From Glaciecola sp. UBA1851 (GTDB lineage Bacteria > Pseudomonadota > Gammaproteobacteria > Enterobacterales > Alteromonadaceae): a DNA stretch of 32,000 nt. The stretch lies in assembly GCA_002338515.1 (NCBI GenBank), contig DDIL01000005.1:1-32000 (forward strand), in the 5' to 3' direction. Shown one piece after another: positions 11,624 through 31,961 of the stretch (its first letter is position 1; each line of letters opens with the position of its first letter). A program made the position numbers and the translations under genes. The notes under the pieces are model-generated. The model had not been told where the DNA came from, made no database searches, and saw only the letters and a program-made list of their open reading frames with translations.

Positions 11624-12210
11624 TTTATATTTTTTGTAGTTGAAACAACACGATTTCAGCATCACTAGCCTCAATTGCTATAAAAATACTGGCAATCGTA
11701 GATAAAAGATATTTATTGTTCAAGGTATACACTTTAATCGACAGACATATCTGCAATAAAACGGAATCAGTGTATAGAGTATAAGTAGAATTGAAACTAT
11801 TTACTAGCCTTCATCTATGATGGTTTTTAGACTATCTAAATTTTTAACTACTAGGCTCTCATAGCTTTTGCCAATATAACTGATTTCAGTTTTTGATCGA
11901 TAAGCTCATTGGTACAGCAAAGAGCAATAGGCCCTAACCTACTATGACAACATTTATTTCTTACTGGCTTGCGTTTTCTTCTTTCCTATCAAAAAATTTA
12001 AAGTCACGATGAATTTTGTGCTTTGTAACTCACAATCATAACGCCACTGATTGGGAAAGATAACTATGTACAACATATCTTTGCGCCATTCCTTAAACAA
12101 GATCGAGGCTAATTAATCAAAAACGCCTCATTTGGATAATTTTTTTACTAGTCAATCGCCCACAGTAAAGCCTATTATTAATCATGTGGTTAATATGATG
12201 GTTAATTATT

Positions 12211-12885: not shown

Positions 12886-14240
12886 GCTCATCGCTGTTTT
12901 TAAAAAAACGAATTTTCTTCATTCTTTTATTTGCAGGCATTGCCTTTGTTGTATTTATTGCATCGCTCAAATCAGGCCCTGTTAAACAACCTGATAGGCT
13001 AAATATTCCTATTGTAGAAGTGGCTAAGGTAGAATTATTGACCATCGACCCTTTGATTACAGGTTTTGGTAGAGCCTTTGCCCACGATCAGTGGCAAGCT
13101 ATTAGTGAAGTAAGTGGCCGCGTTATATATCGTCACCCTGAGCTTGAAGTAGGCAGAACGTTAGAAAAAGGCACAACATTAATTAGAATTGACCCGGTTG
13201 ATTATGAGCTTGCGGTTGCGCAAAGTGTATCTGCTTTGAAACAAGCTCAGCTAGAACGTGAGCGTATTGATTTAAATGAACAGACCTTTCAACAAAACAT
13301 GTTAATTGCTGAAACACAGCTGGAGCTAGCTAAAAATGAGTTAAATCGAAAAGCTGATTTAAATAAAAAAGGGCTAGTATCTAGCTCTGAATTAGAAGCT
13401 CAGCGAAAAGTTGTTTTGCAGCAAGAGCAACAGGTTTGGGAAGCAAAGCAAAGATTAGAGTTGGTGCCGTCTGATAAAGATTTGGCTGATGCCAATATCA
13501 ACTCAGCAAGGGCAAAGCTTACCGAATCAGAACGAAAATTATCGCGTACCGAAGTTGTCATGCCTTTTACGGGAAGAGTTAGCCAAGTAAATATTGCACG
13601 TGACCAACTGGTTAATCCTCAACAGCTAATGATTGAAGCATATGATCTTAGCTTAATGGAAGTAACAGCAAATGTATCGGTTCAAGATATTTCTACGATG
13701 TTACAAAGCACGTCTGGTGAAGCGCGATCTTTTAATGAAAGTATGCCCGGTCAAAATATGCCAGATATTCGAAATTTAGGGCTAAGTGCACAAGTAATTT
13801 ACGCTTTAGGTGATAATACCTTTACTTGGCTAGCTAGAGTTGACCGCCTATCAGTTGGTATTAATGTGCAAGCCAATACAATTGGGATAACCTCTCAAAT
13901 TACCAATAACCCAACCAATTACAACCCAAAAACTAATCCGCCATTACTAAAAGATATGTATGTTCAGGTGGATATTTCCGCTCCTGGAATAGAAAACTTA
14001 GTTGTGCCTAGCAGCGCAATTCATAGCAAAAGGCTATTTGTATTAAACGAAGAAAACCAGTTAAGTTTTGTACCGGTGAGGGTGTTGTATTCGTTAGATG
14101 GATTAAGTGCAATCAAAGCGGATATCAAAGTAGGCGAACGAGTTATTACATCAGACTTGCTAGCGCCGGTTGAAGGAATGAAAGTGCAGCCTGCAGGAGA
14201 GGAAAAGAATGCAGAACTAATTAGAAGGGAAGGGGAATGA
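12882..14240 (+). CDS. RND efflux periplasmic adaptor (membrane fusion protein, HlyD family)
   Basis: N-terminal TM anchor, a long coiled-coil hairpin region (AQLERERIDL...ELEAQRKVVLQQEQQVWEAKQRLE), and barrel-sandwich and beta-barrel segments. Overlaps both neighbouring genes. Confidence 0.85.
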   Translation: MSSSLFLKKRIFFILLFAGIAFVVFIASLKSGPVKQPDRLNIPIVEVAKVELLTIDPLITGFGRAFAHDQWQAISEVSGRVIYRHPELEVGRTLEKGTTLIRIDPVDYELAVAQSVSALKQAQLERERIDLNEQTFQQNMLIAETQLELAKNELNRKADLNKKGLVSSSELEAQRKVVLQQEQQVWEAKQRLELVPSDKDLADANINSARAKLTESERKLSRTEVVMPFTGRVSQVNIARDQLVNPQQLMIEAYDLSLMEVTANVSVQDISTMLQSTSGEARSFNESMPGQNMPDIRNLGLSAQVIYALGDNTFTWLARVDRLSVGINVQANTIGITSQITNNPTNYNPKTNPPLLKDMYVQVDISAPGIENLVVPSSAIHSKRLFVLNEENQLSFVPVRVLYSLDGLSAIKADIKVGERVITSDLLAPVEGMKVQPAGEEKNAELIRREGE

Positions 14241-17200: not shown

Positions 17201-17353
17201 CAAGTATTGCAGCCTTTAGTGGTCAGTTTAATATTTGGGATTATTGCATCCACATGCTTAATACTATTTCTACTCCCCGCGCTTTATGTGATTTTACAAG
17301 ACTTTGGATTAGCGAGTAATGCGCATATGCAGGAACCTGACACTTTTGATTAA
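14237..17353 (+). CDS. RND efflux permease (AcrB/AcrD/AcrF family)
   Basis: 1038 aa with a duplicated architecture of two large periplasmic loops and twelve hydrophobic segments. The start (FFAKHPTAANLLM) and the SMGLPVSF...MIAMLMAIGILMDDAIV region are typical of the family. Confidence 0.9.
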   Translation: MIAFFAKHPTAANLLMAIIIILGLTALPDIKRETFPDFQAKTVQITIVYPGATPAEASSALCLPIEDAIDGLDQLDELTCEARENIAIATVDMQEGGNIDKLVAEVKNEIDAIDSFPDGIELPIVEEKGRTDEVIHLAIQSDINEVELKEYAETIKDKLKRIDGVANIEVGGFSDHQLRVNLSLSKLREYGLTTQDVAESLANQNLKMPGGNLEGNDKTVLLRFDQQRVTANLLEELVIFGGADGGQIKLKELGFVEDRFEDEEVHIRFNGKRAALLKISKSKAEDAIDIATEVMQFVDKEKAMLPSGISMTLTNNTSTIIQDRLSMLLTNGAQGILLVFAVMWLFFSYRYAFWVSMGLPVSFLGTLFLISILGISINMISMVAMLMAIGILMDDAIVIAESIATQVAKNGDVDKGAIDGVKLVLPGVVSSFLTTCAIFGGMAFISGDIGQVLKVIPMVLLLTLSVSLIEAFLILPNHLVHSLHKHKETNETGFKLKFTQKFETFRDVYLVNVVEKVVTYRYAFLGGLFVAFLLSLSLFVGGLLKFKAFPNTEGDILEARLILASGTPFDKTQIVVKQITEAANTLNREFSKQEPDNQSLIKNITVEYNQNRDAFSQGAHLATVRMELQTVEDRITSIYDVHKRWQELVGSMPSIVSLSITEPSIGPAGRAIEIRLSGVNVDQLMQHALAIKSELNQYQGVNNLLLDTREGKEELIISMKPGALSFQVNGSIIANQLRGAYNGIKVDDIQRGSEQIELDVRLQDADKLNINQLNNFPIILPDGTEIPLSAVAKIQQERGVSRINRIEGQPTVTIIGDVDPLLANTAEVLADIDQNFIQPLLQQQPNLQVKFEGEAEEGNKTSASIGQKFLLGLVGIFIILSYQFKSYFEPVMVMTAIPLALIGVLWGHFLLGFDMTMPSIVGFISLAGIVVNDSILLVVFIKQHMQEGMDAHKAAVMAAKERFRAVFITSATTIAGTFPLLLETSTQAQVLQPLVVSLIFGIIASTCLILFLLPALYVILQDFGLASNAHMQEPDTFD

Positions 17354-17630
17354 TTTTTAACTGTACGAAAATTACATAACCACTATTTGAAACTGCCATC
17401 AAACACTATTTATGTGTTTATTTTCATGCACAATAGTTTGTTAAATAATTGTTTTTTTGATTGTTAAAAATACATATATATTTAATAAAATTCTAATCAT
17501 ATGTTTTTATTGATTTTTTTAATTTAAAACAAAATTTAGTAGATTTAAAACTTAAAAAAAATATAAATTTATGGGGTTATTTCCTTCATTTAGCTTGTAA
17601 AGGACCATAACAAATGTTAATAATATGTAA

Positions 17631-17644
17631 TGTAAGCGCTACCA
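17631..17644. promoter_or_regulatory. LacI-family (XylR-like) operator, copy 1 upstream of the TonB-dependent receptor
   Basis: TGTAAGCGCTACCA, a 14-bp near-palindrome with a CGCT/AGCG core. It is part of a 19-bp unit (aatgtaagcgctaccattt) that repeats 21 bp downstream. Confidence 0.55.
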
Positions 17645-17651
17645 TTTTAAA

Positions 17652-17665
17652 TGTAAGCGCTACCA
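17652..17665. promoter_or_regulatory. LacI-family (XylR-like) operator, copy 2 upstream of the TonB-dependent receptor
   Basis: Identical TGTAAGCGCTACCA, offset by exactly 21 bp (two helical turns) from copy 1. Confidence 0.55.
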
Positions 17666-17924
17666 TTTGTTAAAAAACATAAGTTTTAAACGCGGTTTCG
17701 CAATGAATCTATATATAAATTAACGTTATATTTACATTGTAAAAAAGCTAAGTGTTTGAGTCGGGTAAAATTTGAAATTTCGAGTTGTGATCAATGTGTA
17801 CATTCGACATTTCATGCGATCGAGAACTAAAAAGAATAATCAATTATTAAATTATTATGTGTTATCGGTTCTTGGTATTTTCAAAAATTAACACACATGT
17901 AGAACACACGTTAAAGGAAGTCGA

Positions 17925-20906
17925 ATGAAAAACAGCAAAAATAATATAACCTTCGAGAATCAGCGCCCTCATTGGATGCGATTCAAAAAAACTATGGTAG
18001 CTGTGGGTATTAGTGCAGCCGTTGCACATACCCCTCTTTATGTGCATGCTCAAGAAACCTCAGAACAAGCGACTGAAGAAGAGTCTGCAGAGGTTATTAA
18101 TGTTAGAGGGCAACGACAAAGTTTGACTGCTGCCCAAGAACTTAAACGAAATGCTGATACCTTCCTTGACGCAATTTCAGCATCAGATTTAGGCGCTCTT
18201 CCTGATGCTAGTGTTGTTGAAGCATTACAACGTGTTCCAGGTATTACAATAGAGCGGTTTGCTGCACCTGATGACCCAGACCATTTCTCAACGGAGGGCA
18301 GTGATGCAACACTTCGTGGCCTTCCTCAAACTCGTACCGGAATTAACGGGCGCGATAGCGTTGCCGCAGATTCATCAAATGGTTTAGGTTTCGATGACAT
18401 TTCACCTCAATTGCTTGGAAGTGTTGAAATTTATAAAAACCAAACTGCTGATATGATTGAAGGGGGTATTGCAGGTACTATTAACTTGAATACCCGCAAA
18501 CCTTTTGATTCTTCATCTCGAATTCTTAATTTTGAGTTGCAAGGCAGTGAAGGTAACTTATCAAAAGAACCCACATACGGGTTTTCTGGTTTATATTCTG
18601 ATGTATTTGACGTTTCAAGTGGTGAGGTAGGTGTATTGGTGAGCTATAGCTCGGTAGACCTAACGTTTAGAGCCGATGGGGCGGAGCTAGGCCAGCATAA
18701 TTTAGTGGCTGATGCTGCGGGTGCCGGGCAAGACAGATGGACACCTATCAATGCAGGCGTTCGCTCAACTACTACTGATCGTGAACGTGAAGCTGCCTCC
18801 TTTACTTTGCAGTATCAAAATTCTGACGAAACCTTTTTATCTACGTTTGAATATATTCTATCAGACTCAGCAACAAATTGGTCAGAGCATGCATTCTTTT
18901 CAGATGATCAAGCTTATACAAGCTTAGGTGATGATGTTACGTTTGGTAACGAATCATTTACTGGCGGTACACTACAAGGTATTCAAGATGGCTTAGGCCC
19001 GCAAACACGCAAAAGTTCAAGCGAAGAAAAGCTAGAAGAATTTACTTTTAACGTTGCATATAAGCCAACTGATCGTTTAACACTTGAGTTTGATGTGCAA
19101 TATGTTGATGCTACTACCGACGTAGTAGATTTATCAGTATTTGGCGGCATTATTCCTAGGCTTGGCGGTATCGATATTGAAGTAGACGCAATGGGCGATA
19201 CTCCAGTTGTTGGCTTTAGGGCACCCTCTGGTTCTGGCCTAAGCGATGCTGAATTTTTCAGCGACCCTAAGAACTATTTCTATCGTGCAGCCATGGACCA
19301 CGTTGAAGAATCTGAAGGCGATCAAAGTGCATTTCAGTTTGATGTAGACTATGAACTAGAGCATGACATGCTAGATTCAGTTGAAGTAGGCGCGCGTTAT
19401 GCTGAGCGTGATCAAACAACACGTTGGTCAACCTATAATTGGCAAAACTTATCTGCCGAATGGGCCGGTGGTTGGGTTGATTTTAATGGTGACAGAATAC
19501 AACCATCTTGGAATGGCGATACAGCATTTCAGCCAACGGGTGAAACCTTGGATACCCCCGGATTTGAGTCATTTGCCTATCCGGGCTTTCACAATGGTAA
19601 TGCTGGAAGTCCTATAAACAGCCTGTTTGCGTCGTTTAATAGTGTACAAAGCTATGATACATTTTTACAAAGCTATTCTGCCTTTAACTTTCCAAGTTTG
19701 GGTACAAGGGGGGATGTGGTAGATGGCAGTATTTATCGCCCTGCTGAGCTTAACCGTGTGGTAGAGGAAAACACGGCGTTTTACGCTAAGTTAAATTTTG
19801 GTGGTGATTCTCGTGTCTCGGGCAACGTAGGATTAAGGTACGTCAACGTAGATACGTCGGTAGATGGTGGCGAAACTTTCCCTGTTCAGCTATCTGACAA
19901 TCTTGTATTAACTGCGGATGAAATGGCGTTTTTCAATGATGCGAGTATTGTTAGGTCAACCAGCAACAGTTACAGCGCTGTATTGCCTAGTTTGAACGTA
20001 AAATACCTTCTTGGCGATGATTTACTTCTTCGTTTTGCTGCATCAAAATCTGTGGCGTTTGCTGACACGGGTAACTTACGGTACAACTATAACTACACAA
20101 CAGATACAATTGAAATTGACCCAGATGTTGATATGTCACCTGTACGCATTGATCAAATAGAAAGGCGAAGTGGCAATCCATTCTTAGCTCCCATGGAGTC
20201 AATTGACTTAGACTTGTCAGTAGAGTGGTACTTTGATGAGGGTGATTCACTTACAGTGGGTGTTTTCCATAAAGATATTGAAGGTTTTTTCTCAAACGAT
20301 ACTTTCAGTCAGCAGGTAACCAACAATGGAGTAACTTTACCTGTACAGGTAAGTACCACAATTAATGTAGGCAGTGGCACTTTAAAAGGTCTAGAAATAG
20401 GCTATCAGCAGTTCTTTGACGAGTTGCCGGGTTTATTTAGTAATTTAGGCTTACAATTCAACGCAACATTCTTAAGGGAAAGTGGTACACCTAATCAAAA
20501 TACCCGTCCTGTCCAATCAGGTGGGGAAGACGATGTGGCCAGAGCCGAATTGCCGTTTGAAGGTTTGCCTCTGCAAGGTTTGTCTGAAACAACATACAAT
20601 ATTGTGGGTTTGTATGAAGATGATGTTATTTCTGCTCGTTTAGCTTATAACTATCGCTCAGATTATTTATTGACTGTTCGTCAAACTAACCTCGGTATAC
20701 CTATTTTTAACCAGGCTCGAGGTCAACTCGATGGGTCTGCTTTTTATAGTATTACAGATAATATTGAAGTGGGTATTCAGGGGCAAAACTTAACCAAGTC
20801 TGAGTCAAATACGCGTATGCAAGTGGACCAGGAAGGGACAACGGTGGTCAGATCGTCATTTACGAATGACCGAAGATTATCGTTAATTGTAAGAGGTCGA
20901 TTCTAA
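17925..20906 (+). CDS. TonB-dependent outer-membrane receptor (carbohydrate/oligosaccharide type)
   Basis: Signal peptide ending VHAQE. Acidic linker and TonB-box-like EVINVRGQRQS. Plug motifs (DAISASDLGALPDASVVEALQRVPGITIER, GSVEIYKNQTADMIEGGIAGTINLNTRKPF). Long beta-barrel ending in ...LIVRGRF with a terminal Phe. Shine-Dalgarno aggaag. Confidence 0.9.
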   Translation: MKNSKNNITFENQRPHWMRFKKTMVAVGISAAVAHTPLYVHAQETSEQATEEESAEVINVRGQRQSLTAAQELKRNADTFLDAISASDLGALPDASVVEALQRVPGITIERFAAPDDPDHFSTEGSDATLRGLPQTRTGINGRDSVAADSSNGLGFDDISPQLLGSVEIYKNQTADMIEGGIAGTINLNTRKPFDSSSRILNFELQGSEGNLSKEPTYGFSGLYSDVFDVSSGEVGVLVSYSSVDLTFRADGAELGQHNLVADAAGAGQDRWTPINAGVRSTTTDREREAASFTLQYQNSDETFLSTFEYILSDSATNWSEHAFFSDDQAYTSLGDDVTFGNESFTGGTLQGIQDGLGPQTRKSSSEEKLEEFTFNVAYKPTDRLTLEFDVQYVDATTDVVDLSVFGGIIPRLGGIDIEVDAMGDTPVVGFRAPSGSGLSDAEFFSDPKNYFYRAAMDHVEESEGDQSAFQFDVDYELEHDMLDSVEVGARYAERDQTTRWSTYNWQNLSAEWAGGWVDFNGDRIQPSWNGDTAFQPTGETLDTPGFESFAYPGFHNGNAGSPINSLFASFNSVQSYDTFLQSYSAFNFPSLGTRGDVVDGSIYRPAELNRVVEENTAFYAKLNFGGDSRVSGNVGLRYVNVDTSVDGGETFPVQLSDNLVLTADEMAFFNDASIVRSTSNSYSAVLPSLNVKYLLGDDLLLRFAASKSVAFADTGNLRYNYNYTTDTIEIDPDVDMSPVRIDQIERRSGNPFLAPMESIDLDLSVEWYFDEGDSLTVGVFHKDIEGFFSNDTFSQQVTNNGVTLPVQVSTTINVGSGTLKGLEIGYQQFFDELPGLFSNLGLQFNATFLRESGTPNQNTRPVQSGGEDDVARAELPFEGLPLQGLSETTYNIVGLYEDDVISARLAYNYRSDYLLTVRQTNLGIPIFNQARGQLDGSAFYSITDNIEVGIQGQNLTKSESNTRMQVDQEGTTVVRSSFTNDRRLSLIVRGRF

Positions 20907-20925
20907 ACATCCCCTTCTCAAATTT

Positions 20926-20970
20926 AGCTGTAGGTGCTATGTTTATGGTATCTACAGCTTGTTTGTTTTT
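20926..20970 (+). terminator. possible leaky intrinsic terminator/attenuator between the receptor and the halogenase-fold genes
   Basis: An 8-bp stem, agctgtag (20926-20933) pairing with ctacagct (20952-20959), followed by tgtttgttttt. The 18-nt loop is long, so the structure is weak. Confidence 0.3.
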
Positions 20971-21008
20971 GGCGGCGTAATTACCTAAGAGTCTATTTTA
21001 AAGAGTGT

Positions 21009-22565
21009 ATGCAAAGTAATTCCATCAAAAAAATAGTGATTGTTGGTGGCGGGACAGCCGGTTGGATGACCGCCGCTGCATTGTCATCGTTACTAGATAA
21101 GACACAGGTTTCCATATCCCTAATTGAATCCGAGCAAATTGGTACAGTGGGGGTTGGCGAAGCGACCCTTCCTCATCTACGGTTTTTTATCAAGCGCCTT
21201 GGTATTGATGAACAAGAGTTTATGCGCCGCACTAATGCAACGTATAAAACGGGCATTGAGTTTATTAATTGGGGGCAAGTAGGTGAAAGTTACTTGCATC
21301 CATTTGGTGATTTCGGTCAAAGCATCAATAGCGTTGATTTTCATCATTACTGGGTAAAACAGCGACAAACAGGAGACAAAACCGATATTGGCGATTATTC
21401 CCTGCCAGTTGTAGCATCAAAAATGGGTAAGTTTGATTACCCTAGTTCTGACGAGCAATCTATTTTATCTACGTTTTCTTACGCTTTTCATTTAGATGCA
21501 GGGCTGTTCGCCAAGTTTCTACGAGAATACTCTGAAGAAAAAGGTGTAGTGCGTACTGAAGGATTGATCAAACACGTCAAACAAGACGACAAAACAGCTT
21601 TCATATCATCAGTGACCTTAGACAGTGGCCAGTCAATTGAAGGTGACCTATTCATTGATTGCTCAGGCTTTAGAGGGTTGTTAATCGAACAAACACTTAA
21701 AACGGGTTACGATGATTGGCGACATTGGTTGCCATGCGACCGAGCAATTGCCATTCCTTGCGAAACCATGAGTGCGCCTTTACCCTATACTAAAGCAACC
21801 GCACGTGATGCTGGATGGCAGTGGCGTATACCGCTGCAAAATAGAGTAGGAAATGGTCATATTTATTCTAGTTCATATATGGACGATACGACGGCATTAG
21901 ATGTTTTATTACAAGGCTTGGATGCTAAACCTACAGGTGATCCAAATTTCCTACGTTTTACCACAGGAAGGCGTAAAAAAGCATGGAATAAAAACTGTGT
22001 GGCAATTGGTCTGTCAGGTGGGTTTTTAGAACCTCTTGAAAGTACCAGTATTCATCTTATTCAACTGGGTATCATGAAATTGTTAGAATTTTTCCCAGAC
22101 AAGCATTGCGATGAAATAAAAAGCGCAGAATACAATCGCATGATGAGTTTAGAATTTGAACGCTTACGTGATTTTTTAGTGCTGCATTATCATGCAACAA
22201 GACGAAATGACACAGATTTTTGGAACTATGTGCGTACTATGAGCTTACCAGATGGACTCGAACATAAAATGGAATTGTTTAAAGAACGTGGGCATGTTGT
22301 GCAATATACTGAAGGCTTATTTTTAAAAGCAAGTTGGCTTGCTGTCTATTTGGGGCAGGGGGTCATACCTACCCATTATGATTACAATGTGGATGCTCAA
22401 CCTCAAGCAAAAGTTGAAAACTTCTTAAAACAGCTTAAAGGTAATATTTCTGATGCAGCCGCGGGTATGAATGACCACGCTATAAGTTTAGCAAATCATT
22501 GCGATATAAACGTTAATCAAACTCCACCTCCAGCTAGTATGAGTTTATATGGAAGAGACGCTTAA
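21009..22565 (+). CDS. flavin-dependent tryptophan-halogenase-fold protein, paralogue 1 (motifs intact)
   Basis: IVIVGGGTAGWM (GxGxxG, 21045-21062), GVGEATLP, TYKTGIEF, FIDCSGFRGLLIE, GWQWRIPL (WxWxIP), GGFLEPLESTSIHL. The ATG at 21009 (MQSNSIKK...) is preferred over the track's 20934 start. Confidence 0.85.
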   Translation: MQSNSIKKIVIVGGGTAGWMTAAALSSLLDKTQVSISLIESEQIGTVGVGEATLPHLRFFIKRLGIDEQEFMRRTNATYKTGIEFINWGQVGESYLHPFGDFGQSINSVDFHHYWVKQRQTGDKTDIGDYSLPVVASKMGKFDYPSSDEQSILSTFSYAFHLDAGLFAKFLREYSEEKGVVRTEGLIKHVKQDDKTAFISSVTLDSGQSIEGDLFIDCSGFRGLLIEQTLKTGYDDWRHWLPCDRAIAIPCETMSAPLPYTKATARDAGWQWRIPLQNRVGNGHIYSSSYMDDTTALDVLLQGLDAKPTGDPNFLRFTTGRRKKAWNKNCVAIGLSGGFLEPLESTSIHLIQLGIMKLLEFFPDKHCDEIKSAEYNRMMSLEFERLRDFLVLHYHATRRNDTDFWNYVRTMSLPDGLEHKMELFKERGHVVQYTEGLFLKASWLAVYLGQGVIPTHYDYNVDAQPQAKVENFLKQLKGNISDAAAGMNDHAISLANHCDINVNQTPPPASMSLYGRDA

Positions 22566-24167
22566 GTGAGTGAGCATGACCGAGGGCCTATTCAAAATAT
22601 TTGCATTTTGGGTAAACATTTACATGTCGCTTCAGTCGCCGCCGCGCTCAGCCGTAAATTTATGCAGCAAAATATTAATATTATAGCGGTTAACACTGAG
22701 GGTAACGATAAATCAGTTTATGGTGAAGCTTCACTTAGTGCACTTCATTATTTTCATCGCTTTTTGGGGCTAAAAGAGCATCAAATGATGGCGGTAACCA
22801 GCGCAACTTACAAACTTGCATCGCAATATAAAAGGTGGTCATGCAGTGAGGCTAATGACACTAGCGAAAAAAACAAGCATTCCTCTTTCTATCATTCGTT
22901 AAGTAGTTACGGAAGTATGATTGATTCAATTGCTTTTGTTCATCATTTGACCAAACTTCGCCAAAACAATAAAAACTATGACTTTACCTGCTTCTCATTG
23001 CCTGCAGTCATGGCGCGAAACGGTAAGTTTGCTAAACCTGAATCGGCACAGTCAGCATTACCCTATAGCTATGCAATGCACATTGATGCAACCTCCTATG
23101 CTAAGGGTATGCAGGATTACGCAACTAAGCTAGGCGTTAAGTTTATATCTAGTAATATAGATAACGTACAGCTCAAATATATTGAAAATAATCTCGGTCA
23201 ACCTTCCGCGCACGTAAAACAAGTAACCTTGAGCGATGGCAGGCAAATAAAATCTGAATTATTTATCGATTGTACTAGCGATGGTGAGTTAATTGACAAG
23301 GCATTAAACGTTGGTTTTGAAGATTGGAGTGAGTATTTACCTTGTGATCGTTTTTTGACATGCAAAACAGAGTTAGATTTACAATTACAGCCTTCTACAA
23401 ATATGAATTTGCACAAAAATGGATGGGAACGCAGTTTTCCTCTGCAAAATGGAACCGTAAAAGAATTCTTTTACTCAAGCAAATACTTAAGCGATGATGA
23501 AGCGGTAAAAGAATTTGAAGTTAATCATTTAAAAGATACTAAAATCCTAAGTGAATGCCGTATAGAAAAACAAAGGACAGGTCGTCGAAAACAATTTTTT
23601 AGTGGTAATTGCGTGTCTATGGGAGGAGCAGCAGGCAGTTTAGATAGACTGGCCGTTAGTGATTTTCATTTAGTGCAATCAGCTGTATTGCGCTTAATTG
23701 ACTTATTTCCTGATACCTCGTTAGGTCAGTTTGCAGATAATTTTAGCCGCAATGAATATAATCATTTATGTACCGAAGAATATGCACGTATTTTAGATTA
23801 TCACGGCGCACATTTTGCTATCCCAGCAAAAGAAGCTGATGAATCCTGTAGCCAATTTTGGCAAGCGCAAAAAACAGCAATATTACCCGACTCACTTGTA
23901 AAAAAATTTAATTTATTTGAGGCCTGTGGGCGTATACCTTTTTATGAAAGGGAAACGTTTTCTAGTTCAACTTGGGTGTCATTATTATTGGGTTTAGGCA
24001 TGCATCCAAAAAGTTATGATGTGTTATTAGATATGCCTCCAGCTAGCAATGAACGAAGCATAAAAGCAATAAACAACATTATGAATACAATCAAGGATAT
24101 AAGTGATCGCGCCCCCTCTCATGCCCAATACTTGCGCCAGTATTGTGTACGACGAAACAATAGGTAG
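22566..24167 (+). CDS. tryptophan-halogenase-fold paralogue 2, with degenerate FAD-binding and catalytic motifs (probable pseudo-enzyme)
   Basis: Collinear with its neighbours (FIDC, TGRRK, YLPCDR and LFPD retained). However, GxGxxG reads ILGKHLHV, GVGEAT reads VYGEAS, WxWxIP reads GWERSFPL, and EPLEST reads SLDRLAVSD. The GTG start directly abuts the paralogue 1 stop. Confidence 0.75.
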   Translation: MSEHDRGPIQNICILGKHLHVASVAAALSRKFMQQNINIIAVNTEGNDKSVYGEASLSALHYFHRFLGLKEHQMMAVTSATYKLASQYKRWSCSEANDTSEKNKHSSFYHSLSSYGSMIDSIAFVHHLTKLRQNNKNYDFTCFSLPAVMARNGKFAKPESAQSALPYSYAMHIDATSYAKGMQDYATKLGVKFISSNIDNVQLKYIENNLGQPSAHVKQVTLSDGRQIKSELFIDCTSDGELIDKALNVGFEDWSEYLPCDRFLTCKTELDLQLQPSTNMNLHKNGWERSFPLQNGTVKEFFYSSKYLSDDEAVKEFEVNHLKDTKILSECRIEKQRTGRRKQFFSGNCVSMGGAAGSLDRLAVSDFHLVQSAVLRLIDLFPDTSLGQFADNFSRNEYNHLCTEEYARILDYHGAHFAIPAKEADESCSQFWQAQKTAILPDSLVKKFNLFEACGRIPFYERETFSSSTWVSLLLGLGMHPKSYDVLLDMPPASNERSIKAINNIMNTIKDISDRAPSHAQYLRQYCVRRNNR

Positions 24168-24175
24168 TTATATTT

Positions 24176-25738
24176 ATGAATACACCACAAAATGCAGTCA
24201 ACCAAGCAAAAAATGATAATCAAGTTCGTGATATTTTAATAGTCGGTGGTGGTACCGCTGGGTGGATGGTTGCTGCGGCTTTAGCAAAGAATTTTGGTAA
24301 TAAGGGCCGAAAAATAAGACTCATTGAGTCAGAAGAGATTGGTACAGTGGGAGTGGGTGAAGCAACCATTCCTTTTATTCGTACCTTTAATCAATTGCTA
24401 GGTATTGATGAAAACGAGTTTGTAAGGGAAACAAAAGGTACGTTTAAGCTAGGAATTGAATTCAATGACTGGGGCAAATTGGGTGACAGCTATATTCATC
24501 CATTTGGTGTATATGGTTCACCCATGGCCGACAATATACCCTTTCATCACTATTGGCTAAAACTCAGAAATGAAGGCATTGAAACTAATCTTTCAGATTA
24601 TTCATTAGCTATAATAGCCGCGAAAAAGGAGCGGTTTAGCCGTCCTGTCAATATTCAAAACTCACCTATGGCGTCGCTTAATTATGCTTTTCAATTTGAT
24701 TCTGGTTTATATGCTAAATTTTTACGCAAGTTTGCAGAAAGTCGAGGTGTAGAAAGGGTCGAAGGTAAAGTTAGTTCTGTTCAGGTAAATCAAGATACCG
24801 GTTATATTGATTCAGTGACGATGCAGAATACGTCAAGTGATATAGCAGGCTCGGTTAAATATCACGCTGATTTCTATATTGATTGCTCAGGATTTAGAGG
24901 CTTGTTAATAGAAGGAGCTTTGCATACTGGTTATGAAGACTGGACGCATTGGCTTCCTTGTGACCGCGCTGTTGCAGCACCTTGCGCTGCAAATGGAGAA
25001 CCCTTACCCTATACACGCTCAACCGCTAGAAAAGCAGGATGGCAATGGCGTATACCGCTACAACATAGAACCGGAAATGGGCATGTATTCAGTAGTCAGT
25101 ATATGAGTGTTGATGAAGCAACATCTATTTTACTTAATAGTCTTGATGGAGAATTACTTGCCGAGCCCAAAGTGTTAACATTCCAAACGGGACGGCGCAA
25201 AAAAACGTGGAACAAAAACTGTCTTGCTATTGGTTTGTCAGGTGGCTTTATGGAGCCTCTGGAAAGTACTAGTATTCATTTAATTCAATCAGCCATCGCT
25301 AGACTAATAAGCCTATTTCCAGATAAAGATTTCAATGACGCTATTGTTAACCGGTTTAACGATGAGTCTAAATGGGAATATGAACGCATTCGTGACTTTT
25401 TAATACTACACTATAAGCTTAATCAACGTACCGATTCAGAGTTTTGGATGTACTGTCAAAATATGGCGATTCCCGATTTTCTGCAGAGCAAACTCGACCT
25501 ATATCGTAGCAGCGGGCATATTTTTAGAGATAATGAAGAGTTATTTGGCATTCCGAGCTGGTTAGCTGTAATGGAGGGGCAAAACTTTCATGCAGATGGT
25601 TGCCATCCTTTACCTGACGCAAGGGAATCGAGTCGATTGCATGAGCATTTATTAAAAATAGGTTCCGTAATCGACAGGTGCGCAGATAGTATGCCTACTC
25701 ATGCTGAGTTTATTAATAAACATTGTAAAGCTAGTTAA
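24176..25738 (+). CDS. flavin-dependent tryptophan-halogenase-fold protein, paralogue 3 (motifs intact)
   Basis: ILIVGGGTAGWM, GVGEATIP, TFKLGIEF, YIDCSGFRGLLIE, GWQWRIPL, GGFMEPLESTSIHL. Starts 8 nt after the paralogue 2 stop. Confidence 0.85.
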   Translation: MNTPQNAVNQAKNDNQVRDILIVGGGTAGWMVAAALAKNFGNKGRKIRLIESEEIGTVGVGEATIPFIRTFNQLLGIDENEFVRETKGTFKLGIEFNDWGKLGDSYIHPFGVYGSPMADNIPFHHYWLKLRNEGIETNLSDYSLAIIAAKKERFSRPVNIQNSPMASLNYAFQFDSGLYAKFLRKFAESRGVERVEGKVSSVQVNQDTGYIDSVTMQNTSSDIAGSVKYHADFYIDCSGFRGLLIEGALHTGYEDWTHWLPCDRAVAAPCAANGEPLPYTRSTARKAGWQWRIPLQHRTGNGHVFSSQYMSVDEATSILLNSLDGELLAEPKVLTFQTGRRKKTWNKNCLAIGLSGGFMEPLESTSIHLIQSAIARLISLFPDKDFNDAIVNRFNDESKWEYERIRDFLILHYKLNQRTDSEFWMYCQNMAIPDFLQSKLDLYRSSGHIFRDNEELFGIPSWLAVMEGQNFHADGCHPLPDARESSRLHEHLLKIGSVIDRCADSMPTHAEFINKHCKAS

Positions 25739-25953
25739 CCTGAACTCGGGATAAGCAAACCCGTCCAGCAGCGCTATTAGAGCGAATAATTGCGTTACCA
25801 AACTAAGCAATAGAATAACTTTAATTGACTTTACCGCCTTGTTCTTCACTTTAATACAATCACTGAATTATGATATTAATTTGCTTATCTCGAATTGAGG
25901 TTAAATTATACCATTAGTATTGTTTTAGAATTAAAGAGGATATTACACCGTGC

Positions 25954-27039
25954 TTAAAAAATTAAACTAGATAAAGCGTTTGAAAATGTATTGCTACTTC
26001 TATCATAAATTTGAAAAGAGCCACCGTCGCACCAAACAGTGCCGGGTATGCCAAATTCTTTCTGCAATGCCACATGTGCTTTTAAATATTCAAGACGATC
26101 GTTTTCATTACAGATATTTTGAGGTTGCGTGAAATCATACATAGCCGCGCCAAATTCATTTACAATCACGGGAATACCAAAATTTTCAGACCAATTAGAT
26201 ACATCTTGATAAATCTCTCTCAACGCCAATCTATCTGCTTCACTGCCCCATGATCTAGTGCATTGGCCTGCAAATGGCCAAGGGTCATAAGAATGGAAAT
26301 TTGCAATGATATTTGGGTCATTTGGTATATCGGCTTGTTTCATCGCTTCAGCTGGGGTGTACCCATTGCCAGAGTATATGACTGAACGTGTGGGGTTTGA
26401 TTGTCTGATCACTGCTAGTACTTCAAGGTTTAGTGAGTCTACTTGTTCTAATGTCATGCCATTAGGTTCGTTTAAAATTTCAAATAGCAATTTGGATGAT
26501 TTGTTTTTAAATCTGTCAGCAACTTGAGTCCAAATGGCTACGAAACGTGCGCGTTTTTCTGCGTTGATATCATTTTTTAACCATGATTCATGATGCGCAT
26601 TGATCATAACGTAAAAATCTCTTTCTATCGCCCAATCAACAATTTCTTCTACTCGATTAAAAAAGTCATCATTCACTTCATATGGTGATTGATTAGCAAC
26701 TCGCTTATCCCAAGTAATAGGGATTCTGACATGTCCGAAACCTGCTGTTTTATATGCATCATAATAATACTCTTGGGCTGCTAATGCCCATTCACCCTCA
26801 CTAGGAGCGTCAAGTGTATTTCCCATATTTATACCCGTTCCCAATGCTGCAACAATTTCTGTTGGAGTCTGATAATTAGCATCTGGGGTAGGCGTATTAG
26901 TAGTCGGTGGTGGCAAGTTTGGTGGAGTAATTTGATTGTCAGGCGTAGCTACTTCCATGGTTGAATTACTTGACCCGCATCCAAACATAAGCAAAACATA
27001 TAATATTATAAATGTTAACTTTGAAGTTTTAGTAAACAT
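25954..27039 (-). CDS. GH5 glycoside hydrolase (endo-beta-glycanase), probable lipoprotein
   Basis: Signal sequence plus Cys (LLMFGC). Pro/Thr linker (PPNLPPPTTNTPTPD). GINMGNTLDA. Acid/base motif FEILNEPNG and nucleophile motif VIVNEFGA. Confidence 0.8.
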   Translation of the reverse strand: MFTKTSKLTFIILYVLLMFGCGSSNSTMEVATPDNQITPPNLPPPTTNTPTPDANYQTPTEIVAALGTGINMGNTLDAPSEGEWALAAQEYYYDAYKTAGFGHVRIPITWDKRVANQSPYEVNDDFFNRVEEIVDWAIERDFYVMINAHHESWLKNDINAEKRARFVAIWTQVADRFKNKSSKLLFEILNEPNGMTLEQVDSLNLEVLAVIRQSNPTRSVIYSGNGYTPAEAMKQADIPNDPNIIANFHSYDPWPFAGQCTRSWGSEADRLALREIYQDVSNWSENFGIPVIVNEFGAAMYDFTQPQNICNENDRLEYLKAHVALQKEFGIPGTVWCDGGSFQIYDRSSNTFSNALSSLIF

Positions 27040-27127
27040 ATAGCCCCCCTGAGAGCTTTTTAATTGAGGCTATTGGAATTCAATAGCACCTCATTATTGT
27101 TCTGATATTATCTATTTCGATGTAAAA

Positions 27128-27141
27128 TGTAAACGCTTACA
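27128..27141. promoter_or_regulatory. LacI-family (XylR-like) operator in the divergent GH5/GH10 intergenic region
   Basis: TGTAAACGCTTACA, 87 bp upstream of the GH5 start codon and 372 bp upstream of the GH10 start codon. Confidence 0.5.
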
Positions 27142-27512
27142 TTTATTTTTTAATATTCACAAGTTATTTACAATTAAGTGTGTTAAATAACCATTTTACT
27201 GGCATGAAATTTTGTAGTTCCGTGTATTATTTTAGGTATTCACATTATGATTTTTGATTTAAGTGTTGTTTGAATACCCAATATAATTCGTGATTTAACG
27301 AGTGGATCCAACATGTTTAATATACATTTTCGTATTTAAGTATATGAAATAAATAACTATTTATTTAGATTTTGTTTTATTGAAGTAGTGGTGTCTTTTC
27401 TAAATAGGCAGCGATTGGCTTCATTTTATAATCATAAATACAGTTAACAAATTCCTCATCTATAGCTAATATCCATTAAATGTTAAATTAGTGTGGTTTT
27501 TGAAGGTCTGAA

Positions 27513-28652
27513 ATGAAAAATATTAAACTAAGTGTGATTATGTTTGGGTGCATGTTTATCCTTTCTTGCTCAATCAAAAGCGGAAAGATTAATGATATTT
27601 CCAATAGTAGTTTAGCAGATGTTTTTAGTGAAGGATTTGATTTAGGTGTAGCCGTTAACCGCAATCAAATGTTGGGAATTGAAAAACCACAACAGCAAAT
27701 TGTGAGTCAGCACTTTAATGCACTCACACCCGAAAATGATATGAAGTGGAGCACGCTGCAACCTTCTGAAGGTAGTTTTGATTTTACAGGTGCAGATGCC
27801 CTAATAAATTATGCAGCAGAAAATAATAAGAAAATTATTGGCCACGTATTAGTTTGGCATCAGCAAGTACCGGAATGGCTATTTGTTGATGAGCAAGGCA
27901 AACAAGTTACAAGAGAAGTGCTTCTATCTAGAATGAAATCACATATTTTTGAAGTGGCAGGTAGGTATAAAAACCAAATTTATGGTTGGGATGTCGTCAA
28001 TGAAGCATTAAATGATGATGGTAGTCTACGAGAGTCTAAATGGCTTGAAATTATTGGTGAAGACTTTATTGATTATGCATTTTTATATGCTTCCCAAGCA
28101 GCGCCAAACGCTAAACTGTATTACAACGATTACAATCTGTTTAAACAAGAAAAAATTACGGGTGCACTGACAATTGCCGAACGACTAAAACGCAAGGGAA
28201 TTCGAATTGATGGGATTGGTGCACAAGCGCATTATGGGCTAAACCCACCTGTTGCAGAATTAGAAAAAACTATTCAGCGAGTTATTTCTCAGCAATTAGA
28301 TTTTATGATAACGGAACTGGATATTACCGTCTTAAAATTTCCCGAGCCTGAAAAAATGGGGGCAGATGTGAGTCTAAATGTTGAATATGCAGAAGAATAC
28401 AATCCTTATGCTGAAAGTATGTCAAACGAAGCCTTGCAAGCATTGGCACAAAGTTATATCGATTTATTTGAGCTTTTTTGGAAGTACCGCGACCACATCA
28501 GTAGAGTCACTCTTTGGGGAGTAAGTGATGGTGATTCATGGAGAAACTATTGGCCCATGCAAGGAAGAGTTGACTACCCTTTATTATTTGACCGAGCTTA
28601 CCAAGCAAAACCTTTTGTACAAGATTTAATAAACATACCTCAAAGTCAATAA
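27513..28652 (+). CDS. GH10 endo-1,4-beta-xylanase, probable lipoprotein
   Basis: Lipobox-like FILSC. GH10 acid/base motif GWDVVNEAL and nucleophile motif MITELDITV. NDYN and WHQQVPEW are also present. Confidence 0.9.
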   Translation: MKNIKLSVIMFGCMFILSCSIKSGKINDISNSSLADVFSEGFDLGVAVNRNQMLGIEKPQQQIVSQHFNALTPENDMKWSTLQPSEGSFDFTGADALINYAAENNKKIIGHVLVWHQQVPEWLFVDEQGKQVTREVLLSRMKSHIFEVAGRYKNQIYGWDVVNEALNDDGSLRESKWLEIIGEDFIDYAFLYASQAAPNAKLYYNDYNLFKQEKITGALTIAERLKRKGIRIDGIGAQAHYGLNPPVAELEKTIQRVISQQLDFMITELDITVLKFPEPEKMGADVSLNVEYAEEYNPYAESMSNEALQALAQSYIDLFELFWKYRDHISRVTLWGVSDGDSWRNYWPMQGRVDYPLLFDRAYQAKPFVQDLINIPQSQ

Positions 28653-28688
28653 CAGCATTCTTTATTCTTATTTTTGGATTATATACTA

Positions 28689-30323
28689 ATGACACAATCA
28701 ATGATTGAAAACCCAATTTTACCAGGTTTTAACCCTGACCCAAGTATTGTTGCGGTTGGCGACGACTACTATATTGCTACTTCTACGTTTGAATGGTATC
28801 CAGGCGTGCAAATACACCACTCTAAAGATTTGAAAAATTGGCGTCTCGTTAAACGACCGCTTGATAGAGAATCTTTGCTCGACATGCGTGGCGCGCCAGA
28901 TTCATGTGGAATATGGGCGCCTTGTTTAAGTTATAGCAATGGCAAGTTTCATCTGATTTTTACTGATGTGAAGCGGTTTCAAGGTAACTTTAAAGATGCC
29001 CATAATTATTATACGAGTTGTGAAACCATAAATGGAACCTGGTCTGACCCTATTTATATGAATTCCAGTGGTTTTGACCCATCTTTGTTTCATGATGATG
29101 ATGGGAAGATGTGGTTTGTTAATATGGTATGGGATCATCGCCATAAACATAATCAATTTGGTGGTATTTTATTGCAAGAATATTGTCCGAAGCAGCAAAA
29201 GCTTGTTGGAGAAGTTAAAAACATATTTAAAGGAACAAGTTTAGGTCTCACAGAAGCACCACACTTATTTAAAAGAAACGGTTATTATTATTTGTTAACT
29301 GCAGAAGGTGGGACGTTTTATACACATGCAATGACAATGGCACGTTCAAAGAATATTGATGGCCCATATGAAAACGATCCATATGGGTATTTGTTAACAG
29401 CAAAAGACAACCAGCATTTACGATTACAGCGTTCAGGCCATGGAGATCTGGTTGAAACCAGTGACGGGCAAACTTACTTAGTGCATTTATGTGGCAGACC
29501 ATTGGCCGGCGAGAGAAGATGTCCATTAGGTAGGGAAACTGGCATACAAAAAACCTATTGGACAGAAGATGATTGGCTACGTGTTGAAGGAGCCATTACT
29601 GACGGTTTACCTTCTTATGAAGTTCCTGCTCCTGCATTGAATGAGTATCCATGGCCAAAAGACCCTATTCGCTATGATTTTAACGATAATGCTTTGCCTA
29701 TAGCCTTTCAATGGTTGCGTACTCCGTTTCCCGAAAGGCTTATGAATTTAAATGCTAGACCAGGCTTTTTGAGATTAATTGGTAGAGAGTCGATAGGCAG
29801 CCTTTATGAACATGCATTGGTTGCGCGTAGACAACAAGCATTTAAATATCGCTCACAAATTTCAATGGAATTCCAACCTACTAGTTTTCAGCAAATGGCT
29901 GGGCTAGTTGTCTATTACAACTGTCATAAATTTCATTATTGTTATGTTTCAATTGATGATGATGGAAATCGTTTTATCGATATTATGAGTTGCCTTGGTG
30001 ACACATCTCAAGAGTTAACCTACCCGCTTCGAGAAGGTGAATTGGAGATTGGAAGAACTGATTCTAGGTTTATTTTACCCAATACAAGTACTTTGTTTAT
30101 TCGCGCATTAGTTGATCATCACATTCTACATTTTGAGTTTTCTTTAGATGAAAAAAATTGGACGCGTTTACCTGTTAATCTTGACCAAAGTATTGTTTCT
30201 GATGAAGCTGGTGGGGGCGACGGTGCGAATTTTACAGGGGCATTTATCGGCATGGCGTGTCAAGATTTGACCGGTCAAGCTTTAGTGGCTGACTTTGATT
30301 ATTTTGAGTACGAAGAGCTATAA
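28689..30323 (+). CDS. GH43 beta-xylosidase/alpha-L-arabinofuranosidase (XynB-like) with a C-terminal beta-sandwich domain
   Basis: NPILPGFNPDPS (catalytic Asp), YYIATSTFEW, CGIWAPCL, TEAPHLFKRNGYYYLLTAEGG, and a ~200-aa C-terminal domain ending in DFDYFEY. The ATG at 28689 is preferred over the TTG at 28674. Confidence 0.9.
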   Translation: MTQSMIENPILPGFNPDPSIVAVGDDYYIATSTFEWYPGVQIHHSKDLKNWRLVKRPLDRESLLDMRGAPDSCGIWAPCLSYSNGKFHLIFTDVKRFQGNFKDAHNYYTSCETINGTWSDPIYMNSSGFDPSLFHDDDGKMWFVNMVWDHRHKHNQFGGILLQEYCPKQQKLVGEVKNIFKGTSLGLTEAPHLFKRNGYYYLLTAEGGTFYTHAMTMARSKNIDGPYENDPYGYLLTAKDNQHLRLQRSGHGDLVETSDGQTYLVHLCGRPLAGERRCPLGRETGIQKTYWTEDDWLRVEGAITDGLPSYEVPAPALNEYPWPKDPIRYDFNDNALPIAFQWLRTPFPERLMNLNARPGFLRLIGRESIGSLYEHALVARRQQAFKYRSQISMEFQPTSFQQMAGLVVYYNCHKFHYCYVSIDDDGNRFIDIMSCLGDTSQELTYPLREGELEIGRTDSRFILPNTSTLFIRALVDHHILHFEFSLDEKNWTRLPVNLDQSIVSDEAGGGDGANFTGAFIGMACQDLTGQALVADFDYFEYEEL

Positions 30324-30338
30324 TATTTAGTTATAAGA

Positions 30339-30387
30339 TTAGGGTCTGTTGATCTTTACTGTATGAATTTTGTTCAACAGACCCTAA
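30339..30387 (+). other. long hairpin (14-bp perfect stem, 21-nt loop) immediately after the GH43 gene
   Basis: ttagggtctgttga (30339-30352) pairs perfectly with tcaacagaccctaa (30374-30387). Confidence 0.5.
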
Positions 30388-30415
30388 AGCATTCACTTGA
30401 TTGTGAATGCTTTTT
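30388..30415 (+). terminator. rho-independent terminator of the GH10-GH43 operon
   Basis: agcattcac-ttgatt-gtgaatgct (9-bp stem, 6-nt loop) followed by tttt. Confidence 0.7.
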
Positions 30416-30554
30416 CAATCAAATTTACATATCTCATCAACCTTATTATTGAGCCTACATTACTTACTTTGCATAGCTAAATGTTATGTTTTTGTAAAAT
30501 AATTGTCAGAAATCATGAAAATCCATTTGCAAATGCCCCTTAAGCTTATTAATA

Positions 30555-30568
30555 TGTAAGCGCTTTCA
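30555..30568. promoter_or_regulatory. LacI-family (XylR-like) operator upstream of the GPH symporter
   Basis: TGTAAGCGCTTTCA, 47 bp upstream of the transporter start codon. Confidence 0.5.
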
Positions 30569-30614
30569 AAACGAAGGCGGCAATATATTTCTTTCGCAGA
30601 ATCAAGGCAATCAA

Positions 30615-31961
30615 GTGGAAAAATTAAGCATTAAAGAAAAAATCGGATTTGGTCTTGGAGACGCTGCCAGCAACATTGTTTTTCAGATGGTGTTGCTTTA
30701 CATGCTCTTTTTCTATACCGACGTATTTGGTATTTCTGCAACCGCTGTCGGCACACTATTTTTAGTTGTCAGAATTTTTGATGCAATCACCGACCCCATT
30801 ATGGGAGGAATAGCAGATCGCACCAAAACTAAATATGGACGATACCGCCCATATTTATTATGGATGTGCATCCCTTATGGTATTTTTGCGGTTCTAGCCT
30901 TTTCTACCCCCGATCTATCTGATACTGGCAAACTCATATACGCGTGTATTACTTATGCGCTTTTAATGACAATGTATACTGCGATTAACATTCCATATTC
31001 CGCTTTAGGCGGGGTGATGACCACTAATAGAAATGAACGAGCGTCGTTACAATCATATCGTTTTATGTTGGCTATGGTGGGAGGTACGATAGTCGCGGCA
31101 AGTGTGTTACCTATGGTAGGCTTTTTTGGTGGTGACGACAATCCTGCATTTGGCTATCAAATGGCAATGATTGTACTTTCAATATTTGCCGTACTTTGCT
31201 TCGTATGTTGTTTCTTATTGACGAAAGAACGAGTAACTGTGGATGACGAAACACACAGAGTTGATTCTGACAAACCTTCTATTTATCAAGACGCGTTAGA
31301 TATGATAAAAAATGATCAATGGCGCATTATTGCGTTTGTGTCATTTTTATCGTTAGCAAGCGGCGCTATGAAGGGCGCCGTCACACCTTTTTATGTTCAA
31401 TATTATCTGCAACAGCCAGATATGATAAGCGTCTTTTTAACCGCAGGGACGGTAGCGTCTTTGTTTGGCGCTTTATTTGCTAATTTAATGACCGGTAAAA
31501 TTTGTAAAGTTAAATTAATGAAGCTGGCAGTAATAGGCAGCTTAATCTTACATGCTGCTATTGTGTTTATTCCATCAGATCAACTTTATCTGTCTCTCTT
31601 TGTAACTAGCGCAGCCGCTTTTGCACATATGGTATTCACGCCACTACTTTTTTCTGCCGTACCAGATACGGTTGATTATGGCATTAAAAAATATGGAAAA
31701 GGTGCAATGGGGATGGGGGTTTCTGGCCATTTATTTGCTTTAAAACTCGGCTTGGCTGTTGGCGGGGCATGTGCTGGCTGGGTGCTGGGTTATGTTGGTT
31801 ATGTGGCTAATGCAGAGCAAACTCAAGAATCATTAAATGGTATTGTATTTTTAATGGGAGCGAGCAGTGCCATTGCATGCACCTTGATACTACTTTTATT
31901 GAATCGTTACGTACTGTATAGCAAAAAAGAAGATTTAAATGTAAATACAGTGGCTAGTTAG
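30615..31961 (+). CDS. glycoside-pentoside-hexuronide (GPH):cation symporter, probable xyloside/xylo-oligosaccharide transporter
   Basis: KIGFGLGDAASNIVFQ...FYTDVFGISA..VGTLFLVVRIFDAITDPIMGGIADRTKTKYGRYRP is the MelB/YicJ/XynP family signature. About 12 hydrophobic segments. GTG start. Confidence 0.85.
   Translation: MEKLSIKEKIGFGLGDAASNIVFQMVLLYMLFFYTDVFGISATAVGTLFLVVRIFDAITDPIMGGIADRTKTKYGRYRPYLLWMCIPYGIFAVLAFSTPDLSDTGKLIYACITYALLMTMYTAINIPYSALGGVMTTNRNERASLQSYRFMLAMVGGTIVAASVLPMVGFFGGDDNPAFGYQMAMIVLSIFAVLCFVCCFLLTKERVTVDDETHRVDSDKPSIYQDALDMIKNDQWRIIAFVSFLSLASGAMKGAVTPFYVQYYLQQPDMISVFLTAGTVASLFGALFANLMTGKICKVKLMKLAVIGSLILHAAIVFIPSDQLYLSLFVTSAAAFAHMVFTPLLFSAVPDTVDYGIKKYGKGAMGMGVSGHLFALKLGLAVGGACAGWVLGYVGYVANAEQTQESLNGIVFLMGASSAIACTLILLLLNRYVLYSKKEDLNVNTVAS

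Follow-up and report, generated by a model that had tools for sequence, protein, structure and literature searches.

Predicted BglR-type operators connect a TonB receptor-halogenase operon with beta-glucoside genes in an uncultured Glaciecola

The carbohydrate locus and its palindromic sites

The stretch of DNA analysed here, referred to as the window, comprises 32,000 nucleotides (positions 1 to 32,000) of contig DDIL01000005.1 from Glaciecola sp. UBA1851 (assembly GCA_002338515.1). It houses a carbohydrate locus in which a TonB-dependent receptor gene is followed by three tryptophan (Trp) halogenase-like genes (Hal1, Hal2 and Hal3), a minus-strand gene of glycoside hydrolase family 5 (GH5), a GH10-GH43 pair and a GPH-family sugar:cation symporter gene (Table 1). 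We identified four palindromic sites, O1 to O4, which are all intergenic according to the open reading frame (ORF) map and Pfam annotation. Together with a fifth site beyond the right end of the window (O5), these are very probably operators of a BglR-type (beta-glucoside/cellobiose) LacI-family repressor encoded at the end of a symporter-GH1-LacI cluster.

The four sites had been picked out in an earlier note on this DNA, at 17631, 17652, 27128 and 30555, and these coordinates proved exact. A search with the pattern and with a relaxed palindromic pattern gave six strand-wise matches, corresponding to four distinct sites, and none of 100 dinucleotide-preserving shuffles reached this count (shuffle mean 0.07). 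We also applied a weight matrix trained on 66 distinct sites from loci of the regulator's relatives in other organisms (see below), with the window sites left out of the training set. Exactly four matches of at least 8 bits were returned from the window, namely O1 to O4, with scores from 21.4 to 26.1 bits, which bears out the statement that the sites occur nowhere else in the window. Block shuffles of the window produced no weight-matrix match of 20 bits or more. Once the flanks are read, the palindrome reaches approximately 20 bp, AAATGTAAGCGCTTACATTT, and is even with a central CG. O1 and O2 form a perfect 19-nt direct repeat, AATGTAAGCGCTACCATTT, at a spacing of 21 bp, or two helical turns.

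Table 1. Operators, genes and terminator of the carbohydrate locus; positions of features outside the window are window-equivalent.
Feature	Position	Strand	Remarks
Operator O1	17629..17647		core 17631-17644 = TGTAAGCGCTACCA; copy 1 of tandem repeat; 24.4 bits
Operator O2	17650..17668		core 17652-17665 = TGTAAGCGCTACCA; copy 2 of tandem repeat; 24.5 bits
Operator O3	27126..27145		core 27128-27141 = TGTAAACGCTTACA; 21.4 bits
Operator O4	30553..30572		core 30555-30568 = TGTAAGCGCTTTCA; 26.1 bits
Operator O5	36589-36602		CTTTGTAAGCGCTTACATTT; 28.0 bits; outside window
TonB-dependent receptor	17925..20906	+	first gene of O1/O2 operon; Pfam Plug and beta-barrel
Hal1, Trp-halogenase-like flavoenzyme	20934..22565	+	PF04820, E 1e-194
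Hal2, divergent Trp-halogenase-like paralogue	22566..24167	+	PF04820, E 4e-89
Hal3, Trp-halogenase-like	24176..25738	+	PF04820, E 8e-188; last in receptor operon
GH5 endoglucanase-family lipoprotein	25954..27039	-	PF00150; gene proximal to O3
GH10 xylanase	27513-28652	+	Pfam
GH43 beta-xylosidase	28674-30323	+	Pfam
Terminator, double hairpin and U-run	30339..30415	+	closes GH10-GH43 unit; 14-nt perfect arms
GPH-family sugar:cation symporter	30615..31961	+	first of symporter-GH1-LacI; TIGR00792 passed
GH1, 441 aa	32065-33390		outside window
LacI-family regulator, 332 aa	33573-34571		PF00356, PF00532, PF13377; outside window
GH9, 586 aa	34716-36476	-	CelD_N and GH9; convergent with LacI; outside window

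The two members of the tandem pair are situated 259 and 280 bp 5' of the receptor ATG. O3 precedes the GH5 ATG by 88 bp, at a distance of 371 bp from that of GH10, and O4 lies 46 bp 5' of the symporter GTG. O1 is found directly 3' of the promoter-like TTGTAA-18-AATAAT, which ends at 17624. The best promoter-like site on the minus strand shares its -35 hexamer, TTTACA (27133-27128), with O3, and O4 abuts TTGCAA-17-TAATAT (30527-30555), which was judged by eye and falls below the scan threshold. Counts from the promoter scans were not above those of shuffles in this AT-rich DNA, and the positions are therefore used as weak support. The operator placement, with O3 on a -35 hexamer and O1 and O4 abutting -10-like hexamers, fits repression, and we infer repression rather than activation, with promoter overlap, as the probable mode of control.

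The AT-rich leader from the tandem operators to the receptor start codon (17666-17925) is unusually long, at approximately 260 nt or more, and the receptor signal peptide suggests that translation may instead start at the Met near 17976. Sites in related loci lie 11-231 bp from the start. An Rfam scan of the window gave no match, which leaves both long leaders, that of the receptor gene and that of GH10, without any known RNA element. The GH10 leader includes a 17-nt inverted repeat (27226-27287; 88% complementary, with 28 nt between the arms), which might form an RNA hairpin or be bound by some other regulator.

The adjacent LacI-family gene and the loci of its relatives

No LacI-family gene lies inside the window, as had been remarked earlier. 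The further statement that the repressor must be encoded elsewhere does not hold, since the gene belongs to the same cluster. Contigs with an identical symporter run past the window end into a GH1 gene and then an ORF with an N-terminal LacI-type helix-turn-helix, and the full continuation was read from two TARA Oceans scaffolds that are 99.9% identical to the window. The regulator gene starts approximately 1.6 kb past the window end as the third gene after O4 (symporter-GH1-LacI), and the GH1-LacI gap of 182 bp is without a site. Its product combines the N-terminal LacI helix-turn-helix with a periplasmic-binding-protein-like sugar domain. The GH1 protein passes the NCBIfam beta-glucosidase equivalog model TIGR03356 at 570 bits (cut-off 478.5), and the nearest solved relatives of the GH9 protein are endoglucanases or cellulases. 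O5 is located 112 bp 5' of the GH9 ATG and has the highest score among the five sites.

The 99.9% identity is broken once only, by an indel of approximately 50-100 bp in the spacer that separates the convergent Hal3 and GH5 genes (window 25721-25775 versus 11169-11270 of L167).

We examined 82 loci that carry relatives of the regulator, 80 of them from a metagenome scan, supplemented by individual homologue look-ups. The relatives from the scan are 57-65% identical to the known N-terminal 187 residues of the regulator, and the ORFs of these loci were labelled by BLAST against the window proteins. Clustered at 90% identity these regulators give 47 groups, and at 80% identity 26, so the loci are not one clone resampled. 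The usual layout is GH1-GPH symporter-LacI on a single strand, often with a divergent GH3 gene (preceded by an MFS_1 transporter in L102 and L172) and often with one to three Trp-halogenase-like genes behind a TonB receptor gene. The motif TGNNAGCGCTNNCA occurs 102 times in 1.12 Mb of these loci, where base composition would predict 0.64 occurrences. Of the 55 GH1 genes with enough upstream DNA, 54 have a site in the 400 bp before them, and further sites precede TonB receptor, GH3/MFS_1, symporter and LacI genes. The consensus before the GH1 genes, AAATGTAAGCGCTTACATTT, is the same palindrome as in the window, and the O3 14-mer TGTAAACGCTTACA is identical to one just upstream of GH1 in a Xanthomonadales metagenome-assembled genome (MAG; locus L171). 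Tandem pairs are common as well; their spacing is 52-59 bp ahead of GH1 and 39 bp ahead of receptor genes. The pairing of site and regulator is thus conserved together with its gene context. Along with the approximately 20-bp palindrome and the LacI-family gene in the cluster, this agrees with the earlier view of the sites as putative LacI-type operators.

As a negative control we used 80 GH10-centred loci (1.33 Mb, 13 of them gammaproteobacterial) from a GH10-anchored scan of species-representative genomes, in which the best GH10 relative was 51-53% identical. The motif was found nowhere in these 1.33 Mb, and the 80 loci hold no close LacI homologue, the best being 30% identical.

These counts bear on whether the palindromes could have arisen by chance in AT-rich spacers or could serve a global regulator of LacI/CcpA type encoded at a distance. 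The motif does fit the generic LacI/cre pattern TGNNANCGNTNNCA, and the best solved relatives of the regulator are CcpA proteins. However, no shuffle attains the observed count, sites and regulator gene co-occur across at least 47 sequence clusters with approximately 160-fold enrichment, and the GH10 control loci, which are without the regulator, are also without the sites. We consider an origin of this kind extremely improbable.

Regulon identity and the xylan genes

The Shewanella Bgl pathway consists of bglA-I (a cytoplasmic GH1), bglT (a GPH symporter) and bglR (LacI), with a divergent glcP-bglA-II (GH3) operon and an omp(Bgl) TonB receptor; BglR sites were predicted ahead of every unit (Rodionov et al. 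2010, PMC2996990). In E. coli, BglT-BglA confers growth on cellobiose (PMC2996990). The published bglT primer encodes the N-terminus MISIKEKI, which matches the symporter type of approximately 445 aa found in the relative loci, and the 82 relative loci reproduce the Shewanella layout. The locus described here resembles Shewanella/Alteromonadales BglR (PMC2996990; RegPrecise) in that the gene for a LacI-family regulator sits in one cluster with those for a GH1 beta-glucosidase and a GPH symporter, and in that sites precede the GH1/symporter operon (O4) and the TonB receptor (O1/O2); sites before a GH3 operon are found in relatives only. We use the label BglR-type on the basis of this gene layout and of predicted-site placement relative to the Shewanella pathway. 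The sites would accordingly be conserved regulatory elements of a known kind, LacI-family operators of BglR type. The differences are local: the order is symporter-GH1-LacI, GH5 and GH9 endoglucanase-family genes and a three-halogenase receptor operon have been added, the tandem operator has a 21-bp spacing, a GH10-GH43 pair is embedded in the locus, and no GH3/glcP unit was seen in the available DNA of the organism. Halogenase genes are not mentioned in the account of the Shewanella pathway (PMC2996990).

The earlier note had likened the motif to the Xanthomonas xyl-box. The string given there was not found in the literature searched, where the xyl-box is printed as TGGTAGCGCTAACA (PMC10380989). 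To this published form the window consensus matches at 11 of 14 positions, so that a likeness exists, although only at the level of the family: the CebR box TGGGAGCGCTCCCA matches at 10 of 14. Window consensus, xyl-box and CebR box all share an AGCGCT core and TG...CA ends, which are typical of LacI-family operators. Because the consensus is about equally close to both boxes, motif similarity cannot assign the regulon; the conserved context of the regulator does so, and points to beta-glucosides. More generally, likeness among LacI operators (xyl-box, CebR box, BglR box) is no guide to regulon membership and conserved gene context is, and here a plausible but wrong assignment is corrected on this basis.

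CebR and CelR of Streptomyces and Thermobifida are LacI/GalR-type repressors. The CebR box is a 14-bp sequence found before GH5, GH9, GH1, transporter and cebR genes and is cellobiose-responsive (PMC4358012, PMC3538285). The likeness to our system includes a perfect 14-bp palindrome with the AGCGCT core and a regulon of GH5, GH9, GH1, transporter and regulator genes, while induction by cellobiose or cello-oligosaccharides is a feature of CebR/CelR. Those systems differ in being actinobacterial, with GC-rich flanks and an ABC transporter in place of the GPH symporter and TonB receptor found here. We treat the resemblance as functional analogy only and do not assign the locus to CebR/CelR.

A xylose-responsive LacI repressor of the XylR type, which would place the receptor-halogenase operon in a xylan regulon as the earlier note proposed, seems to us a very unlikely owner of the sites. 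The likeness to Xanthomonas/Caulobacter XylR extends to a LacI-family repressor, a 14-bp palindrome with the same AGCGCT core and TonB-receptor carbohydrate loci; GH10 and GH43 are present in the locus, and some sites of relatives read TGGTAGCGCTTCCA (L086). XylR regulons, however, are built around genes for xylose isomerase and xylanases and are xylose-responsive (PMC10380989), and such genes are not seen beside the regulator's relatives: GH10, GH43 and GH5 were labelled in none of the 82 relative loci, and the Pfam annotation listed for five relative contigs includes no xylose-catabolism gene. The absence of the motif and of a close LacI homologue from the GH10 loci, against 102 motif occurrences in the relative loci, argues in the same direction. 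Xanthomonadales- and Caulobacterales-labelled homologues (including Phenylobacterium; 55-61% identical) lie in GH1/GH3 (Bgl) contexts with the same motif, and the family is therefore not the Xanthomonas/Caulobacter XylR. In addition, the sites are proximal to the GH5, GH9 and GH1 units rather than to GH10.

This last point concerns O3 in particular, since the site at 27128 had been assigned to GH10. Its proximity to GH5 and its overlap with the GH5-side -35 hexamer speak against that assignment, and O3 is at most a candidate control site for GH10-GH43. Thus the earlier claim that a shared operator ties the receptor-halogenase operon to its neighbours stands for the carbohydrate genes, including the symporter, and does not extend with any certainty to the xylanase.

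Nevertheless, a BglR-type repressor may also have been recruited for xylan use, with O3 serving both the GH5 and GH10-GH43 promoters and an O4-controlled symporter importing xylo-oligosaccharides, giving one mixed cellulose/xylan unit. We regard this as doubtful, though a serious possibility. In its favour, the GH10-GH43 pair is wedged between regulated units, an arrangement found only in this lineage when compared with the relative loci, and O3 sits in the intergenic region shared by GH5 and GH10. The symporter precedes GH1, unlike the GH1-symporter order of nearly all other loci with both genes, and the nearest solved GH9 comes from a xyloglucan system. The best NCBIfam model of the symporter is YagG, and YicJ and YagG are predicted xyloside transporters (PMC2996990). 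The YagG match is not diagnostic, however, because all Bgl-locus symporters share this best model. Against a mixed unit, the best plus-strand promoter-like site for GH10 (27405-27432, from a scan not above chance) is a further ~260 bp beyond O3, itself 371 bp from the GH10 start; the weight matrix found no match nearer to GH10 than O3 and no weaker site before GH10; and xylanases occur in no other locus of the regulator's relatives. The strong terminator of GH10-GH43 (-35.2 kcal/mol, z -6.65), whose hairpins a simple terminator scan missed, implies that the symporter unit is separate. Comparison with the GH10 locus of Pseudocolwellia revealed no shared palindrome before GH10, and base composition shows no anomaly that would mark GH10-GH43 as a recent insertion.

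The best solved relatives of GH5 are 'Endoglucanase H' (4u3a, E 6.5e-73) and other endoglucanases and cellulases; like those of GH9 and the beta-glucosidase model passed by GH1, they favour the Bgl assignment. Several findings weigh against it. The 4u3a enzyme has been described as a bifunctional cellulase/xylanase, which would equally suit the mixed unit. BoGH9A (6dht), the closest solved GH9, was deposited under the name of a xyloglucan-specific endoglucanase, the symporter shares 49% identity with one from a xylan locus and 45-47% with those of Bgl loci, and the best relative of the receptor (34%) lies in an Alishewanella GH10 locus. The regulator is 57-65% identical to its nearest relatives, which are themselves more than 70% identical to the L087 query, and at this distance its effector could have shifted. 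Lastly, as stated above, promoter-like matches are no commoner than chance in this DNA.

Based on the established behaviour of LacI-family proteins, we suggest the following scheme for the BglR-type repressor. When no inducer is present, repressor dimers would occupy the palindromes that overlap or abut the promoters of four transcription units: the TonB receptor with the three halogenase-like genes, behind two operators 21 bp apart; GH5; symporter-GH1 and possibly LacI itself; and GH9. O1 and O2 would lie on one face of the helix and would probably be bound cooperatively, ahead of the most expensive operon. Basal GH5/GH9 activity would release a beta-1,4-linked disaccharide or oligosaccharide, which would enter via receptor and symporter, bind the sugar-binding domain of the repressor and free it from DNA. 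Gene content by itself points to a beta-glucoside or cellobiose effector, cellobiose being the most likely inducer. The regulator may be partly autoregulated through O4. For this marine bacterium, which is uncultured and known through TARA Oceans scaffolds, a predicted regulon of five operators and four units can thus be defined, and it would couple a TonB receptor, a symporter, a beta-glucosidase and two endoglucanase-family enzymes.

Halogenase genes and neighbouring features

By operator sequence, the receptor-halogenase operon is predicted to be tied to the carbohydrate genes. The receptor passes the NCBIfam model TIGR01782 (TonB-Xanth-Caul subfamily) at 610 bits (cut-off 310). The closest solved relatives of Hal1 are BrvH (6frl, E 1.5e-155) and Xcc4156, an entry described as 'putative tryptophan halogenase' (6y1w). 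The start of Hal1 is more likely the ATG near 21009, and a related contig calls a 518-aa product. Read by eye from the translations, Hal1 and Hal3 carry GGGTAGW, the FAD-binding motif, together with GWQWRIPLQ and LEPLES. Hal2 appears by eye to be without the N-terminal GGGTAGW and the LEPLES glutamate segment and has GWERSFPLQ in place of GWQWRIPLQ; as a paralogue it looks catalytically degenerate.

Sites before a TonB receptor-halogenase operon were also found in L084 and L086. A neighbourhood of TonB receptor, one to three Trp halogenases, SapC and JmjC has been described from alpha- and gammaproteobacteria, and a halogenated siderophore-like product was predicted for it (Iyer et al. 2010, PMC2938197). 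The operon studied here is similar in that a TonB-class receptor is followed by one to three Trp-halogenase homologues, and the full version with SapC and Cupin_8 is present in L171. It departs from the siderophore prediction in carrying operators of a predicted sugar-responsive repressor next to beta-glucoside genes. Our literature search met this receptor-halogenase neighbourhood only in Iyer et al. 2010 and returned nothing joining it to polysaccharide, laminarin or Alteromonas. For BrvH, two papers describe the native substrate as unknown and indole as possibly not the substrate, and they do not discuss a TonB-receptor or carbohydrate context (PMC7754283, PMC5945002).

Predicted sugar-responsive control argues against an iron-related role of the halogenases and does not reveal their chemistry. 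As a tentative proposal, for which we claim rather less than even confidence, genes of the BrvH/Xcc4156 type may be genuine members of sugar-induced, LacI-controlled TonB-receptor uptake modules in alpha- and gammaproteobacteria, with a role tied to the acquisition of beta-glucan (glycan) rather than to secondary metabolites; the repressor of the present lineage would then have annexed cellulase and perhaps xylanase genes. The occurrence of halogenase genes behind a predicted sugar-responsive operator in several lineages suggests cellobiose or beta-glucan as growth conditions for a search for the halogenase substrate.

Two further loci show variants of this neighbourhood. In the Xanthomonadales MAG (L171, 1-10671) the order is TonB receptor-DUF6445-halogenase-SapC-Cupin_8-halogenase-GH1-LacI. 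L090 (12487-20132) has a second receptor-halogenase-halogenase operon, preceded by a variant palindrome, TGACAGCGCTGTCA, which may be the operator of a paralogous LacI regulator.

The region at 9947-17353 is unrelated to the carbohydrate locus and without operator sites; it includes a minus-strand 7TMR-DISM diguanylate cyclase and then an operon of a TetR regulator, a membrane-fusion protein and an RND efflux pump. A phosphonate-type cluster at 5485-9884 encodes a LicD-family protein, a cytidylyltransferase-PEP phosphomutase fusion, a TPP-dependent decarboxylase and an iron-containing alcohol dehydrogenase, which suggests a phosphonate-decorated surface glycan or lipid.

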